DNA of 64,000 nucleotides, from the IMG/VR virus record IMGVR_UViG_3300049794_000047; one strand, 5' to 3'. Made by a program: the position numbers and the translations under genes. Within the stretch, counting starts at the first letter, position 1. Each line of letters starts with the position of its first letter. Below are positions 9,015 to 62,707 of the stretch, piece by piece. Under the pieces are notes generated by a model that had not been told where the DNA came from, ran no database searches, and saw only the letters and a program-made list of their open reading frames with translations. The stretch comes from a virus (Duplodnaviria; Caudoviricetes).

Positions 9015-9129
9015 CATGCTTATCCGGATAGCACCCAGAGCAAGAGTCGGTCCTCTGGTGAACCATTTGGAATTCCTCGGGATCGACGATCGGCAAAGTC
9101 CGCACAGGGGCAACAACCGGATAAGCATG
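9015..9129. mobile_element. 115-bp non-autonomous IS1595-family MITE
   Basis: Ends CATGCTTATCCGG / CCGGATAAGCATG match the TIR family of the adjacent IS; flanks are not duplicated. Confidence 0.7.
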
Positions 9130-9153
9130 GTTTGATCCATGCCTGTCCGGTTG

Positions 9154-10188
9154 TCACCCAACGCTCCCACTGGTAGTGCTCGGATGAATCCAATCTCCAT
9201 CGTACAACTCGTCATATGTGGGAGCCTCCTTCGTGACACTCAGGCCGAGCAACGAGCGGAAGCTGTTGAACGGGTAGAAGCGCCGGTTGAAGCGGAACAC
9301 GAACTCGTTCAGGTACGCCTGGAGGTGATCGGGCGACACGCCGTGATGCGTGCCGTTGATCCACGTTTTCAGGTTCGAGAACACGAGGTGGATCACGGGC
9401 AGGTAGTCCTCGGTGACTCCCGGCTCGCCGCGCTCGGGACACGCGAGGTGCTGGTAGCCGTGCCGAGCGAGGCCCGCGTAGCTCTGCGAGCCGTCGGTGA
9501 CGACCATCTCCGTGAGGGTGTCGACGTTCGCGGCGATGAAGCTGCCGCACGTCTTCGCGGTCTTGTCGGGGATGACCGCGAGGCGCAACCGCCCCGCATA
9601 GCGACCGCCGCGCCGGGGCTTCGCCTTGGTGTGCCGGTAGTCGTCCTCGCTCTCGATCTTCTCGACCTTGCGCTGCTTTACCTCGACCGCGCCGATCACG
9701 CGGATCTGATCGGTGACGCCTCGTCCCTTGCCGCGCGTGCGCCCGCCGACGTAGGTCTCGTCGACCTCGACGTGTGCGCGGGCGCCGATCGGCCCGCTCG
9801 TGGTCGCCATGCCGGCGCGGAGCTTGTGGAGGATCTGAAAGGCCGTCTCGTAGCGGGTGAGTCCGAGCTGGCGCTGCAACTGCACGGCGGACATGCCGGG
9901 CGTTTGGCTGGAGATCAGGAAGGCCGCCCAGAACCAGGTGCTCAGCGGCGTGTGGGTCCGCTCCATGATCGTGCCGGCAGTGAGTGCCGCATCCTTCTTG
10001 CAGCCCTTGCAGCGCAGCACGCCGGGGCGCGCGGCGAACCGGAACGGCTCCGCGGTGACGTTGCACCTCGGGCACTGGAAGCCGTCGCGCCAGCGGATCG
10101 CTTCGAGGTACTTCGCGCACGCGGCGTCGTCCGGGAACATCTTCATAAAGCCGGGGAGCGACTCGGGAAACTTGTCGGCCATGCACAT
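9154..10188 (-). CDS. IS1595-family (ISXO2-like) DDE transposase
   Basis: Zn ribbon CPRC..CKGC, HTH, VEVDETY, VVTDG, HHGVS..HLQAYLNEFVFRFNRR. Confidence 0.95.
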   Translation of the reverse strand: MCMADKFPESLPGFMKMFPDDAACAKYLEAIRWRDGFQCPRCNVTAEPFRFAARPGVLRCKGCKKDAALTAGTIMERTHTPLSTWFWAAFLISSQTPGMSAVQLQRQLGLTRYETAFQILHKLRAGMATTSGPIGARAHVEVDETYVGGRTRGKGRGVTDQIRVIGAVEVKQRKVEKIESEDDYRHTKAKPRRGGRYAGRLRLAVIPDKTAKTCGSFIAANVDTLTEMVVTDGSQSYAGLARHGYQHLACPERGEPGVTEDYLPVIHLVFSNLKTWINGTHHGVSPDHLQAYLNEFVFRFNRRFYPFNSFRSLLGLSVTKEAPTYDELYDGDWIHPSTTSGSVG

Positions 10189-10191
10189 AAC

Positions 10192-11019
10192 TTAGACCGC
10201 CTCGTCTTCGAGGTGGCGGGAGAGCGTCTCTGGCATTTCACACAGACCTCCGCACTGGACTGGCGGCTCGTTGTTGATGTGCCACTTGGGCTCGTCGATC
10301 AGGCGCAACATGCGCAGCGAAATCCGCACGCGCTTGCCGCCTCGGCGGTCGCTGAGAAACCAGGAGCCAGAGCCGAGGAGATCCTGAAGCTTGGCGACGT
10401 TCTCGTAGTTCTCTGGGTAGTGGAGATCGATGTGCTTCCAGTAGCCGAGGCCGCCCTTCGGGCATTTGAGACAGTTGCTGTTGTCGAATCCCTGGAGGTA
10501 CGGAACCGGAAGGACGAGGCCAGCGTCCGCAACGATCTGGAAGCAATCCTGTTTCGTGAGTCCCTCCTCGATCAGCGGCGCGATCACGTCACGGCCTGCG
10601 TTCGCGTCGACGAAGCTATCCAGGCGGTGCGCCTCGTCGGCCGTGTAGCCAAGCACCATCGTAGCTTCCGGGTGATATGCGTCGAGAATCTTGCCTTTGA
10701 GCAACTTGGAGCACGGCGCACCGTCGCGTCCGGCGATGAATCGCTTCGCAAACCAGACCTTGAGCGGGTCTGCATCGAACTTCGTATCGCGCAAGACCGT
10801 GATCGAACGAGCGAAGTAGCGTTCCGCGTCCGCGAGGAAGCGCCGGTTATCGGGGTGCTCTGCGGCAAGGAAGGCGTTGATCACCTCGACACGACTGCCG
10901 TAGCGGGCGAGCGCGATCTTGGTGGCGACGAACGACGCAGCGCCGCACGAGAATCGCGCGACAACTCGACCCTCTGGCACGGCGATTGCCGTTGTTTCGG
11001 AAAGGATTGCGGCGACCAT
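10192..11019 (-). CDS. PAPS-reductase-like / PP-loop (adenine nucleotide alpha hydrolase) protein, phage type
   Basis: RFSCGAAS PP-loop variant, EHPDN.RF, GAPCS..LK, GYTADE, NC..C.KGG.GYW. Confidence 0.75.
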   Translation of the reverse strand: MVAAILSETTAIAVPEGRVVARFSCGAASFVATKIALARYGSRVEVINAFLAAEHPDNRRFLADAERYFARSITVLRDTKFDADPLKVWFAKRFIAGRDGAPCSKLLKGKILDAYHPEATMVLGYTADEAHRLDSFVDANAGRDVIAPLIEEGLTKQDCFQIVADAGLVLPVPYLQGFDNSNCLKCPKGGLGYWKHIDLHYPENYENVAKLQDLLGSGSWFLSDRRGGKRVRISLRMLRLIDEPKWHINNEPPVQCGGLCEMPETLSRHLEDEAV

Positions 11020-11138
11020 GCTCTACACACTAGCCATGGATACGTTGGGTGCCAACCGGATAGGCATGGTTTGATCCCCATCGCCCGGGGCTTACCCTTG
11101 CCAAGCTTGACGCGGGGCGTACGTCATCGGGCATCTAA

Positions 11139-19076: not shown

Positions 19077-19406
19077 CTACTTGACGACGCGGAGCACCGT
19101 CTCGCGTGGCCTATCCTCGACGACGGTCTCCTCGTCGGCAAAGTCGTCCGGCGGTCTCCCACAGTGTGGGCACGTCCGTGGCGAGAGCAGCGCGCCCGCG
19201 AGCAGGTCGTCGATCGACACGTCGGTCAACCGCGCGACGCCGTAGGCGAGCCTGGCCGTGACGTCTCGCCCGCCGCGGAGCACCTTGCCGATGGTGTCGG
19301 CCTTGACCCCAAGCGCGTCGGCGAGGGGCTGCCAGCCTCCGACACGGTACCGCAGGAAGCGGATCGCGATGCGCACGTGCCGCTGCTCTTTGTCGGTGAG
19401 CCTCAC
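19077..19406 (-). CDS. XRE-like HTH protein with CPHC motif
   Basis: LADALGVKADTIGKVLRG HTH; GTGA-coupled to the transposase. Confidence 0.75.
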   Translation of the reverse strand: MRLTDKEQRHVRIAIRFLRYRVGGWQPLADALGVKADTIGKVLRGGRDVTARLAYGVARLTDVSIDDLLAGALLSPRTCPHCGRPPDDFADEETVVEDRPRETVLRVVK

Positions 19407-20722
19407 GGCATCACCAGCTGCGAGAACTCGGCCTCGACCCCGAACTCCTCGATCGCATGCACGATGCAGCTCAGGTTCCACAGCAGCACCTTGGCGAGCA
19501 CCTCGTTAACCTGCGCCGCGAACAGCTTGGATCGCACGCTGCCGCCGAACTTCGCCTTCATCGCACCGAACGTCGACTCGACGTTGCTGCGCCGGTGGTA
19601 GTGCCTGAGGAACTCCTCGGCCTTGAGGTCGAAGTAGGCCCACATCTTCCGCCAGTGCTCGTTCGGATGGTCCATCTCGCGGCTGTTGCTCTTGAACGGC
19701 ACGAAGGGCAGCGCGCCGACCGCGGCGATCGCATCGAGATTGGGCGCTGCCAGGTACGCCTTGTCGGCGCTGACCTCCCGCATCTGGAAACGCTGGGCCG
19801 TCGCGTTGACGAGATCCTTGAACTGGAGCGAGTCGCCAGATCCGGTGCCCGTGCCGATCGTGACGCGCGCGGCGGTCACGACGTTCGTGAGCGTCCCGGT
19901 CGCGGCGTGCAGCTTCACCCAGTCGTGGATGAATCGCTGCTCCTTGTGCTTCTGATCGTGCCAGCGCTCGACGACGACCTCCCCCTCGTCCCTCAGGCGC
20001 CGCACGGTCGTCTTGAACCCGGTCGCGTCCACGGCGAACTGGCCCGCCCTGTTCTCGACCTGCGCCTGCGGGCCCGCCGCCTCCTCGATCATCCACGTCA
20101 GGATCGGCGTCATCGCCGGGCTCTCCATCGCGCGGAACAGCGTGTTCGCGTCCCACGCCCGCGAGAGGTACCCCCGCTCGACGCACGCAGCGATATCCGA
20201 CTCGGCGCGGCGGCCGGAGCAGCCCGAGTACACCTTCATCACGAGGCCGAAGATCGCCTCACGGTCAGGGATCGGCCTGCGCCCCGGCGCGCAGGGGTCG
20301 CGTTCTGCGTCGGGGACGGCGAGGCACAGTGAGTGGAGGAACTGTGGGACGCGCCTGCGCTCGGTGGTCTGCGCCCGGTTGTACGCGGGCCAGTTCTGTT
20401 TCGACTGCTGCTTCTTCTTGGGGAGCGTGATCTCGCCCGTCTCGACGTTCATGGCGCCCTCCCACGAGAGCCAGAACAGGCACGCCTCGTAGTGCTTGCA
20501 GGGTCTGCGGCGCAGCTCGTAATCCGGGCACGTGCAGGTCTGCTCGACGAGATCGACGAGGTACGTCGGGACGTTGGAGTTAGCCGACTGCGCTGGCACG
20601 ACGTAGCGTCCGCCGAGCGGGCGGATACCGCCGCGCTGGGCGATCTGTCGGCCGCGCTCCTCGCGCGTGGTGGGGAGGGGCTTGAACTCGGTCGGGGCTG
20701 CGGGGGTCTCGGCGGTTGCCAT
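19403..20722 (-). CDS. DDE transposase (IS5/IS903-like) with N-terminal SWIM zinc finger
   Basis: CTCPD...CKH SWIM; NWPAYN; AVDATGF, VKLH, ADKAY, YHRRSNVESTF. Confidence 0.92.
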   Translation of the reverse strand: MATAETPAAPTEFKPLPTTREERGRQIAQRGGIRPLGGRYVVPAQSANSNVPTYLVDLVEQTCTCPDYELRRRPCKHYEACLFWLSWEGAMNVETGEITLPKKKQQSKQNWPAYNRAQTTERRRVPQFLHSLCLAVPDAERDPCAPGRRPIPDREAIFGLVMKVYSGCSGRRAESDIAACVERGYLSRAWDANTLFRAMESPAMTPILTWMIEEAAGPQAQVENRAGQFAVDATGFKTTVRRLRDEGEVVVERWHDQKHKEQRFIHDWVKLHAATGTLTNVVTAARVTIGTGTGSGDSLQFKDLVNATAQRFQMREVSADKAYLAAPNLDAIAAVGALPFVPFKSNSREMDHPNEHWRKMWAYFDLKAEEFLRHYHRRSNVESTFGAMKAKFGGSVRSKLFAAQVNEVLAKVLLWNLSCIVHAIEEFGVEAEFSQLVMP

Positions 20723-40734: not shown

Positions 40735-40846
40735 CATGCTTAGGGGCTGGAACGAAATAACCTGGTCATTTCTGGTGGAGCTTCGTCGGGGAATCGTTCA
40801 AATGACCAAGTTAATAAAGTCCAGCCCCTTATCCGGTTATCACCCA
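40735..40846 (+). mobile_element. orphan IS1595-family end interrupted by MITE copy 6 (40743-40828)
   Basis: Removing the MITE and one TTA restores CATGCTTATCCGGTTATCACCCA. Confidence 0.8.
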
Positions 40847-40878
40847 TCGCGGTGGTTCCGAAAGCTGCCCTAGTCCTG

Positions 40879-61241: not shown

Positions 61242-61288
61242 CGCACACCGGACCCGCTGACGCGGCGCCGCGATTCCGTACAATGAAG

Positions 61289-62429
61289 CATGCTTATCCG
61301 GTTAGCTCCCAATAACCCGTGATTCTCTCATTCAAATATCGCCTGAAGGGCCAGCGCTGCATCCGTCAACTTCGACGGGGCGCCTGTATGGTGAACCGCG
61401 TCTGGAACTACAGCGTGCAGACGCAGCATTCGGTTCAGCGGACCTGCCGGGATGGACTTTCCCCTCGGTGGCCCTCCAAGTACGATCTTCAAAAACTCAC
61501 GGGTGGCACCTCCCAAGATCTAGGTCTTCATGCCCAAACGATCCAAGGGGTGTGCGAGCAGTTCACGAAGTCGCGCGACCTTCACAAAAAGTGCCCCCGT
61601 TTCCGTCGCTCTGGAGGGGCCAGGCGCTCCCTCGGTTGGATTCCATTTCAAAAGCAGTCTCGGCAGATCACCGCCAACTCGATCACCTACCTCGGCAACA
61701 CGTACCGCTTCTTCGGCTCGAAGAAGCGCCCCCTCCCTGAGACTGCGAAGGGCGGCTGTTTCGTTGAGGATGCACGCGGCCACTGGTGGGTCTGCTTCCA
61801 TGTCGAGGTGCCGGATGATCTGCCCAGGGCACCAGACACCGCGGTCGGGATCGATTTTGGTCTCACGACGTTGGCAACGCTTTCGACCGGCGAGAAGATC
61901 GAGGCCCCCCGGACGTACCGTCGCTACGAGGAGAAGTTGATCGTCGCGCAGCGCGCGAATAACAGGTTCCGTGTTCGGGCACTGCACGTCAAGATCGCAA
62001 ACATCCGTCGGGACCACATGCACAAGTGGACGACGAAGGTGGCCCGATCCCATCGGACAATCTTCGTCGGTAACGTCTCAAGCTCTCAGCTCGCGAAGAC
62101 AAAGATGGCGAAGTCCGTCTACGACGCGGGCTGGTCGACTTCTCGAAACGCCCTCCGCTACAAAGCCAGCAGGCACGGGGGAACGTTCCGAGAGGTGGAT
62201 GAAGTTTCGACATTCACGACCCAAACCTGCTCGACGACGGGGATTCTCCCGCCGGAGAGGCCGAGAGGTATCGCAGGCCTTGGAATAAGAGAGTGGGGGT
62301 GTTCTGCCTGTGGAGAAATCCACGACCGCGACGTGAATGCGGCCCGGAACATCCTTAAACTCGGGCTGAGTGCTCAGCCTCTTGTGGAAGAAAGCCGGGT
62401 TGCCCATGGGCGTTAACCGGATAAGCACG
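61289..62429 (+). mobile_element. non-autonomous IS1595-type TIR element carrying only tnpB
   Basis: TIRs CATGCTTATCCGGTTAGCTCCCA and (rc) CGTGCTTATCCGGTTAACGCCCA; 8-bp TSD CAATGAAG at 61281-61288 and 62430-62437. Confidence 0.9.
61319..62416 (+). CDS. tnpB: RNA-guided endonuclease TnpB with rearranged RuvC-II
   Basis: FKYRL, VWN, RuvC-I GIDFG, VGNV in place of VEDL, alternative Glu in VDE..FTTQTC, RuvC-III DRDVNAARNI. Confidence 0.92.
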   Translation: MILSFKYRLKGQRCIRQLRRGACMVNRVWNYSVQTQHSVQRTCRDGLSPRWPSKYDLQKLTGGTSQDLGLHAQTIQGVCEQFTKSRDLHKKCPRFRRSGGARRSLGWIPFQKQSRQITANSITYLGNTYRFFGSKKRPLPETAKGGCFVEDARGHWWVCFHVEVPDDLPRAPDTAVGIDFGLTTLATLSTGEKIEAPRTYRRYEEKLIVAQRANNRFRVRALHVKIANIRRDHMHKWTTKVARSHRTIFVGNVSSSQLAKTKMAKSVYDAGWSTSRNALRYKASRHGGTFREVDEVSTFTTQTCSTTGILPPERPRGIAGLGIREWGCSACGEIHDRDVNAARNILKLGLSAQPLVEESRVAHGR

Positions 62430-62431
62430 CA

Positions 62432-62707
62432 ATGAAGATCAGACGCAAGACCGGCCCTTCACAACTGTCCCGCCAGGCCCGGGCGATACTGTCACGCACG
62501 GCCATCGCCCAGGGAGCAATCGACGCCGCCGTCACAGACGTCGTGGTCGAGGGCGGCCCGCCTGAGCTCGGCCCCAAACGGAAGACCGCGCAGCGCGCCT
62601 GGCTCGACCGGGACATTACGAAGCGTGTCCGCAACGGTGGTGTTTCAGCACCGAACCCGAAGGGCCCTATGAAAGGCCTCGTCCCTGCTCCTCGGCTCCC
62701 CACCTGA
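62432..62707 (+). CDS. basic hypothetical protein
   Basis: Its ATG lies in the duplicated target CAATGAAG. Confidence 0.5.
   Translation: MKIRRKTGPSQLSRQARAILSRTAIAQGAIDAAVTDVVVEGGPPELGPKRKTAQRAWLDRDITKRVRNGGVSAPNPKGPMKGLVPAPRLPT

Follow-up and report, generated by a model that had tools for sequence, protein, structure and literature searches.

The locus described here raises the question of what kind of enzyme a TnpB-like protein is when it carries no glutamate at the canonical RuvC-II position, and whether such a protein is an active RNA-guided nuclease, an inactivated DNA binder or a prokaryotic relative of the eukaryotic Fanzors. The gene lies near the right end of a 64,000-nucleotide stretch of viral DNA (Duplodnaviria; Caudoviricetes; IMG/VR record IMGVR_UViG_3300049794_000047), the whole of which is referred to below as the window. 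A reading made from the sequence alone had seen a Fanzor-type rearranged active site in positions 61843-62352, which fall inside a single open reading frame (ORF) on the + strand (tnpB, 61319-62416; 365 amino acids, GTG start codon). The encoded protein is a full-length TnpB of the relocated-glutamate (E-alt) type, a group also named TnpB2 or RuvC-II-rearranged, and its sequence features make it most likely that it is active and cleaves double-strand DNA under the guidance of an omegaRNA. The explanation that we consider probable for the locus as a whole is that an E-alt TnpB nuclease, with a guide RNA drawn from its own 3' end, is carried by a non-autonomous IS1595-type element that is moved in trans.

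Assignment to the TnpB family is based on profile matches above curated cut-offs that together span the full length of the protein. Residues 15-347 matched the NCBIfam model guided_TnpB (NF040570) with 179.8 bits (cut-off 100), and the Pfam families OrfB_IS605 (PF01385) and Cas12f1-like_TNB (PF07282) were matched with 49.3 and 63.2 bits, respectively. The scores for the IS200- and IS607-specific TnpB models were far under their cut-offs. Among solved structures, the closest relatives by sequence are ISDra2 TnpB and an AI-designed derivative of it (E ~1e-23 to 1e-26), with Mimivirus Fanzor2 (9b0l) as a weaker match (E = 3e-5). The ORF shows neither a frameshift nor a C-terminal truncation.

Residues of the active site were mapped by phmmer/HMMER alignment to ISDra2 TnpB (8exa/8h1j), and their conservation was followed in a main set of 121 homologues with 62-100% identity. 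The RuvC-I aspartate D179 (GIDFG, nt 61853-61855) aligns with ISDra2 D191 and the RuvC-III aspartate D338 (DRDVNAA, nt 62330-62332) with D361, while G251 (VGNV, nt 62069-62071) occupies the canonical RuvC-II position held in ISDra2 by the catalytic E278. A glutamate, E295 (VDE, in VDEVSTFTTQTC; codon 62201-62203, + strand), stands 44 residues past G251 and nine ahead of C304, the first cysteine of the zinc finger, and D179/E295/D338 is the predicted triad. D179, G251 and E295 are invariant in all 121 homologues and D338 is kept in 120; E295 is also retained in nearly all representatives clustered at 50% identity. In the first zinc-finger pair, C304-S-T-T307 (62228-62239, + strand), the second cysteine is replaced, as in 42 of the 121 homologues that carry Thr there (Cys in 78); the second pair, C328-S-A-C331, is intact. 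Since Thr307 is this common, the CxxT pair is a trait of the closest homologues and not a lesion. All of the residues singled out in the sequence-only reading, namely the two intact aspartates, VGNV at the canonical position, a glutamate about 45 residues later and the degenerate CSTT pair, were thus confirmed by these alignments.

The replacement of one glutamate by the other follows a strict pattern. In a wider set of 142 clean rows, to which genome loci and the 50%-identity representatives contributed, the two states proved mutually exclusive: 122 rows combine a canonical-site Gly with an alternative-site Glu, and in the other 20, which keep the canonical Glu, the alternative site is occupied by Arg or Gln. 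The window protein has the two features by which E-alt proteins are recognized, a non-acidic residue at the canonical RuvC-II site (G251) and a conserved glutamate about six residues ahead of the zinc finger. The family consensus spacing, E-x6-CxxC, equals the published E-alt definition (PMC10711439); in the subclade of the window protein it reads E-x8-C owing to two extra residues (VS), an insertion found in 27 of the 121 homologues. Two further positions vary among the relatives, as RuvC-I reads D-L-G in 112 of the 121 and D-F-G in the window protein, and at position 252, where the window protein has Asn, 86 homologues have Asp and 33 share the Asn.

An AlphaFold2 model built from a 30-sequence alignment (mean predicted local distance difference test score, pLDDT, of 82) was used to locate these residues on the secondary structure. 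According to DSSP, strand beta1 (175-179) ends in D179, beta4 (247-252) holds G251, and E295 follows immediately after beta5 (289-294). The model has a TnpB/Cas12f-like fold: Foldseek returned ISDra2 TnpB first (8h1j, E = 7e-19, template modelling (TM) score 0.65), followed by ISFba1 TnpB and Cas12f, and Fanzor2 (9b0l) came tenth with a TM score of 0.58 and a probability of 1.0. A compensating glutamate on beta5 instead of beta4, as in RuvX, has been described (Altae-Tran et al. 2023, PMC10691335). The E-alt enzyme TvTnpB shows cleavage that depends on a target-adjacent motif (TAM) and has no collateral activity, and the E467A substitution in ApmFanzor abolishes cleavage (Jiang 2023, PMC10530073); in the cryogenic electron microscopy structure of ApmFz2 the triad is D324/E467/D501 (PMC11832414). 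By analogy with these enzymes we infer that E295, at the end of beta5, would complete the metal-binding triad with D179 and D338 in place of the beta4 glutamate that is swapped for glycine at G251, and that catalysis would proceed through it.

The boundaries of the element that carries this gene are set by a target duplication. Identical 8-mers, CAATGAAG, abut its two inverted ends at 61281-61288 and 62430-62437, giving an element of 1,141 bp (61289-62429) with tnpB as the sole gene. Its terminal inverted repeats have 24-nt arms that are 88% complementary: the left one (CATGCTTATCCGGTTAGCTCCCA) lies at 61289-61312 and the right one (...GTTAACCGGATAAGCACG) at 62406-62429 (both given on the + strand), the latter containing the tnpB stop codon TAA (62414-62416). 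The same right end adjoins the TnpB C-terminus in 29 loci, and the core of the left repeat recurs at the same place in relatives; around these relatives, the ends are found in unrelated sequence surroundings.

This core is also found at two other places in the window, which identify the type of transposon. One is an autonomous IS1595-family element of 1,931 bp (9138-11068, - strand; ends CATGCCTGTCCGGTTG...), flanked by an 8-bp duplication, GTTTGATC, at 9130-9137 and 11069-11076. Its transposase combines Zn_ribbon_IS1595 and DDE_Tnp_IS1595 domains (9154-10188, - strand), and as a passenger the element encodes a 275-residue protein resembling phosphoadenosine phosphosulfate (PAPS) reductase (10192-11019, - strand; PHROG 424, E = 1.5e-35; no Pfam family). 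The other is a miniature element (MITE) of 115 bp (9015-9129) with the same inverted ends, separated from the IS1595 element by 8 bp (GTTTGATC, 9130-9137). The left end of the tnpB element matches the ends of the IS1595 element at 21 of 26 positions. Exact 8-bp duplications were found at seven independent elements, namely the two in the window, those in loci L001, L094, L099 and L198, and a 255-bp MITE in L088. The DDE-type ends noticed in the sequence-only reading are real; inverted repeats, an 8-bp duplication and a match to an IS1595 element are all present.

From this similarity of ends at the sequence level, the tnpB element would have been moved in trans by an IS1595 DDE transposase such as that encoded at 9154-10188, and the element at 9138-11068 is the likely source of the enzyme. 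In the more distant Burkholderia E-alt group (45% identity) the ends are asymmetric and lack inverted repeats, so the IS1595-type vehicle is a trait of the subclade. The E-alt TnpBs of these Burkholderia loci (L008, L010-L014 and L018; ~45% identity) have a right end reading ...GGACGTCAA, and in five of seven Burkholderia genomes the gene adjoins one and the same conserved, hairpin-like flanking sequence (tgctccgagaaaccccg...), suggesting that the target is chosen by sequence. At L198, an end-like sequence (CATGCTGTTCC) lies 8 bp past the TnpB element, as with the MITE and IS1595 element of the window, and IS1595-type elements may insert beside one another's ends.

With the element delimited, it can be asked whether this particular copy has decayed. 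Such a relic of an otherwise active family could be seen in the combination of N252, where 86 of the 121 homologues have Asp, the two extra residues between E295 and the zinc finger, T307 and a GTG start codon. These states are, however, common among relatives that are under purifying selection (33, 27 and 42 of the 121 homologues for Asn252, the insertion and Thr307, respectively), the ORF is full length and unshifted, and the perfect target duplication suggests a recent insertion. The ratio of nonsynonymous to synonymous substitution (dN/dS) over codons 2-277 was 0.09-0.15 in comparison with seven relatives; because this ratio is near 0.1, the protein is under strong purifying selection and is maintained, not decaying. 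We therefore regard an inactive relic as unlikely.

The gene appears to share its 3' end with a conserved RNA. Over its final ~180 nt, the ORF is near-identical at the DNA level among loci whose proteins are only ~80% identical, and the similarity breaks at ...GGATAAGCACG (62429), beyond which unrelated sequence follows; this was seen in 23 loci, and in 29 after the set was extended. Identity at synonymous codons rises from ~0.4 in the first 277 codons to 0.62-0.83 in the last 90, and dS is four- to sixfold lower in the last 88 codons. RNAalifold on 20 sequences gave 51 base pairs, 15 of them with compensatory changes, and one conserved hairpin takes up a whole extra stem in four relatives. 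In these (L087, L088, L092 and L125), the extra stem arises from an insertion of ~40 nt in the hairpin loop (alignment columns 238-279), which at the same time gives an in-frame, longer TnpB C-terminus. A conserved structured RNA thus covers the 3' end of the gene and ends at the right end of the element, as is expected of TnpB, and the region 62150-62429 (+ strand), which takes in the right inverted repeat as well as the final ~90 codons, is probably the scaffold of the omegaRNA; the guide would then start at 62430.

By this reasoning the guide RNA would be cut from the 3' end of the tnpB transcript itself. Because the RNA ends precisely where the element does on its right side, the first guide nucleotides would come from the duplicated target, and the 16-20 nt of the guide (about 62430-62449) would consist of the duplicated 8-mer, which supplies the first 8 nt, and the right flank; the processing of the RNA and the length of the guide are both predictions. 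ATG stands directly upstream of the 8-bp duplication in four of nine elements. The right end beside tnpB always reads ...AAGCACG (62420-62429, 29 loci), and the MITE and the IS1595 element have ...GCATG at both ends. One may speculate that this one-base difference, at the place where a TAM would lie in the occupied locus, protects the element from its own nuclease.

The position of the guide also bears on whether the protein might be a nuclease-dead, RNA-guided DNA binder of the TldR kind, in which the loss of the canonical glutamate and of one zinc-finger cysteine would amount to inactivation. Besides these two absences, the geometry would suit a repressor, as the guide would cover the start of a downstream ORF of 91 amino acids (62432-62707, + strand), whose ATG start codon lies inside the right copy of the duplication. 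However, both aspartates and the alternative glutamate are invariant or nearly so in the family, published E-alt enzymes cleave DNA, and the protein has the full length, including the C-terminus, with a conserved RuvC triad. The gene moreover sits in a mobile element whose flanks and duplications differ from locus to locus, so the guide would change with every insertion, unlike that of domesticated TldRs. A TldR-like binder is accordingly quite unlikely, and the preference of the sequence-only reading for a working nuclease is upheld by the conserved triad, the low dN/dS and the omegaRNA-like 3' region ending at the terminus of the element.

A separate matter is whether the relocated glutamate links the protein to Fanzors. 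TnpBs have been split into those with the canonical glutamate and E-alt proteins, and the latter into D-Phi-G and DPG groups according to RuvC-I; Fanzors and the mostly cyanobacterial IS607 "pro-Fanzors" are confined to the DPG clade, and the combination of DPG and E-alt occurs in <1% of homologues (Yoon et al. 2023, PMC10711439). Among rearranged clades the largest is RIIr-5, with a Glu-to-Gly change (Altae-Tran 2023, PMC10691335), and a monophyletic 'TnpB2' has been described (Jiang 2023, PMC10530073). E-alt therefore marks a large, known prokaryotic TnpB clade with no special link to Fanzors: the alternative glutamate is conserved at its published position, as the sequence-only reading held, and its use there as a mark of Fanzors and their closest relatives is not supported, E-alt alone being widespread.

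We placed the protein in a tree of the 142 rows of our own sequence sample (IQ-TREE quick search, LG+G4), which has neither Fanzors nor verified pro-Fanzors among its members; when 301 cyanobacterial genomes were searched for such references with a relative carrying DPG and E-alt, only TnpBs lacking the DPG/E-alt pattern were returned. The 20 canonical-Glu rows formed one clade (SH-like approximate likelihood-ratio test, SH-aLRT, 100). The window protein fell among the E-alt rows, apart from the canonical-Glu TnpBs, inside a clade of 21 rows that are wholly D-Phi-G (SH-aLRT 98). Of the phylogenetic check proposed with the earlier reading, which this tree covers for TnpBs and not for Fanzor references, the separation from canonical TnpBs was obtained, and the placement within an all-D-Phi-G clade points away from Fanzors. 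Ten rows with DPG were scattered over the tree with at least five origins, the nearest being 1.29 substitutions per site from the window protein. DPG was for this reason rejected as a clade marker, and by itself it cannot identify pro-Fanzors in this neighbourhood.

A strict pro-Fanzor would belong to a narrow prokaryotic branch that forms the sister group of the eukaryotic Fanzor2 and Fanzor1. It would share with the window protein the E-alt position and the clear sequence and fold match to Fanzor2 (9b0l); some representatives at 36-46% identity do carry DPG together with E-alt, and Fanzor1 likewise travels on a DDE transposon that has inverted ends and duplicates its target. The test nevertheless fails on the defining feature, since RuvC-I is G-I-D179-F-G and not DPG, with D-L-G in 112 of the 121 relatives, and the all-D-Phi-G clade and the distance to the nearest DPG row argue in the same direction. 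The protein is also nearer to ISDra2 TnpB than to Fanzor2 (TM 0.65 versus 0.58; E 6e-23 versus 3e-5), its named relatives are Proteobacteria or viral contigs and not cyanobacteria, and the ends of its element are inverted repeats with 8-bp duplications and not of the IS607 type. No recombinase family was present among the called genes of nine flanking loci, and inspection of loci revealed no IS607 serine recombinase, although no systematic search of the flanks for one was made. The label 'pro-Fanzor-like' is hence not supported, we judge membership of that lineage to be very unlikely, and the sequence-only interpretation holds only in part.

Compared with described systems, the E-alt protein of the window is closest to the D-Phi-G clade of E-alt TnpBs (PMC10711439), TnpB2 proteins such as that of Thermoplasma volcanium (TvTnpB, PMC10530073) and RIIr-5 (PMC10691335), the last likeness being drawn by description and not by placement in the tree of Altae-Tran. 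It shares with them Gly at the canonical site, a conserved glutamate just ahead of the zinc finger and ~45 residues past that site, DRDxN in RuvC-III, a compact size of ~365 amino acids and a guide-RNA region over the gene 3' end. The described members reside in IS605 (Y1) or IS607 (serine) elements or occur solo with asymmetric ends, whereas the subclade of the window protein has symmetric IS1595-type ends, 8-bp duplications, the two extra residues before the zinc finger and the CxxT pair. With Fanzor2 and pro-Fanzors (ApmFz2, 9b0l; cyanobacterial IS607 TnpBs) it has in common the alternative glutamate and the overall TnpB fold, but those proteins have DPG, IS607 partners, an N-terminal extension and a nuclear localization signal, in contrast to D-F-G, the absence of an extension and a DDE-type vehicle here. 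ISDra2 TnpB (8exa, 8h1j) is the top match in sequence and fold among solved structures and agrees in domain order and in the omegaRNA over the gene 3' end; it differs in its canonical glutamate (E278), C4 zinc finger, Y1 TnpA partner and hairpin ends without duplications.

Association of tnpB with DDE transposons as such has precedent, as a 2026 review lists ISL2, IS630 and IS1031 as DDE partners of prokaryotic TnpB (PMC13565253). DDE-associated TnpBs (DDE-1 to DDE-6, Altae-Tran 2023; ISL2/IS630/IS1031, PMC13565253) resemble the case in the window in having tnpB inside inverted repeats, with the gene 3' end near the transposon end, and in the occurrence of solo copies whose ends are like those of transposase-bearing elements; the partner family, IS1595, and the variable 8-bp duplication set the window element apart from those described. 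IS1595 was not named with TnpB in the literature searched, which comprised sources other than the supplementary tables of Altae-Tran 2023, and only in its IS1595-type vehicle does the locus go beyond what was found described.

Several observations weigh against the favoured explanation of an E-alt nuclease with its own guide RNA on an IS1595-type element. For the enzyme, the zinc finger has three cysteines only (C304, C328 and C331), and catalysis by E295 is argued from homology, the structural model having been used for strand topology only. For the RNA, there was no Rfam match apart from a sub-threshold hit on the other strand to H19_2, an unrelated long noncoding RNA (17.6 bits, where the gathering score is 50; E 0.15). 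The fold of the single sequence was no better than that of shuffled sequences (z = -1.41), and because this value is not significant we relied on covariation and synonymous constraint. Among the duplication-verified elements, the duplications are preceded by 4-5 nt that vary (CGTA, GCTG, CATG, GATT, TATG), and no TAM was derived from them. As to the vehicle, six relatives (L083, L087, L096, L277, L280 and L281) have the ends but no matching duplication, and tblastn found no IS1595 transposase gene beside tnpB in 276 loci, with one weak distant match in L205. It is from this last result that the TnpB elements are taken as non-autonomous, and since no tnpB locus carries an adjacent IS1595 transposase, mobilization in trans is the form of movement that we infer.

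Two further features of the window concern transposition more generally. A lone end-like sequence, CCCTTATCCGGTTATCACCCA, lies at 40826-40848, where no partner was found for it, and a second, unrelated transposase gene at 19403-20722 (- strand) encodes DDE_Tnp_1 and SWIM zinc-finger domains.

The left end of the tnpB element is arranged in a way that bears on expression of the gene. Only 30 nt separate the end of the element from the tnpB start codon. In the left flank, a sigma70-like -35/-10 pair (CTGACG-16-TACAAT; 61257-61284, + strand) matches the consensus, with one site found versus 0.2 expected, and is a possible, weak candidate for an outside promoter of tnpB. A frame of 10 codons, MKHAYPVSSQ* (61283-61315, + strand), starts in the left copy of the duplication, crosses the left end and terminates 3 nt short of the tnpB start codon. 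The same arrangement was seen in all five duplication-verified TnpB elements (the window, L001, L094, L099 and L198): the insertion point has an ATG or GTG 0-8 nt away in the outside sequence, and the frame opened there crosses the left end and closes no more than ~10 nt from the start of tnpB. At L281, the outside frame is fused to tnpB. These frames suggest translational coupling of tnpB to a captured host start; alternatively, the outside starts could mean that the element prefers targets containing ATG or that it inserts where genes begin. On the right side, insertion of the element put its right end in place of the upstream region of the 91-residue ORF.

These features allow a role to be proposed for the nuclease. 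As the guide would start with the duplicated target, the ribonucleoprotein (RNP) would match uninterrupted insertion sites, in which the target 8-mer and the right flank are contiguous with the left flank, and it would cut such uninterrupted copies; a role in homing or in retention of the element would fit this behaviour. A more far-reaching account is that the E-alt subclade, which comprises at least 29 loci down to ~55% identity, left Y1 and serine elements and became the sole cargo of IS1595-type DDE elements, with a guide starting inside the variable 8-bp duplication. On that account the nuclease would home on uninterrupted alleles, for example in co-infecting phage genomes, and would not repair the excision scar, and the left end would be built for read-through from a captured host start. 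We put this forward as a tentative proposal that on balance we hold to be somewhat doubtful.

The relocated glutamate thus makes the protein one more member of a large, described TnpB clade and should not be taken as a clue to the origin of Fanzors. The vehicle is of more value, in that a family of some size, metagenomic and phage-borne, has retained an intact nuclease together with a guide RNA inside IS1595-type ends, at a time when reviews call prokaryotic OMEGA-DDE pairings rare and question what a cut-and-paste transposon would gain from a homing nuclease. By analogy with characterized E-alt enzymes, the TnpB of the window is a compact (365 amino acids), probably collateral-free candidate nuclease, and the family offers a tractable system for studying the adaptation of TAM and guide rules to a transposase whose 8-bp duplications vary. 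If the proposed history of the subclade is true, it would parallel, in prokaryotes, the way in which Fanzor1 was captured by DDE transposons of eukaryotes.

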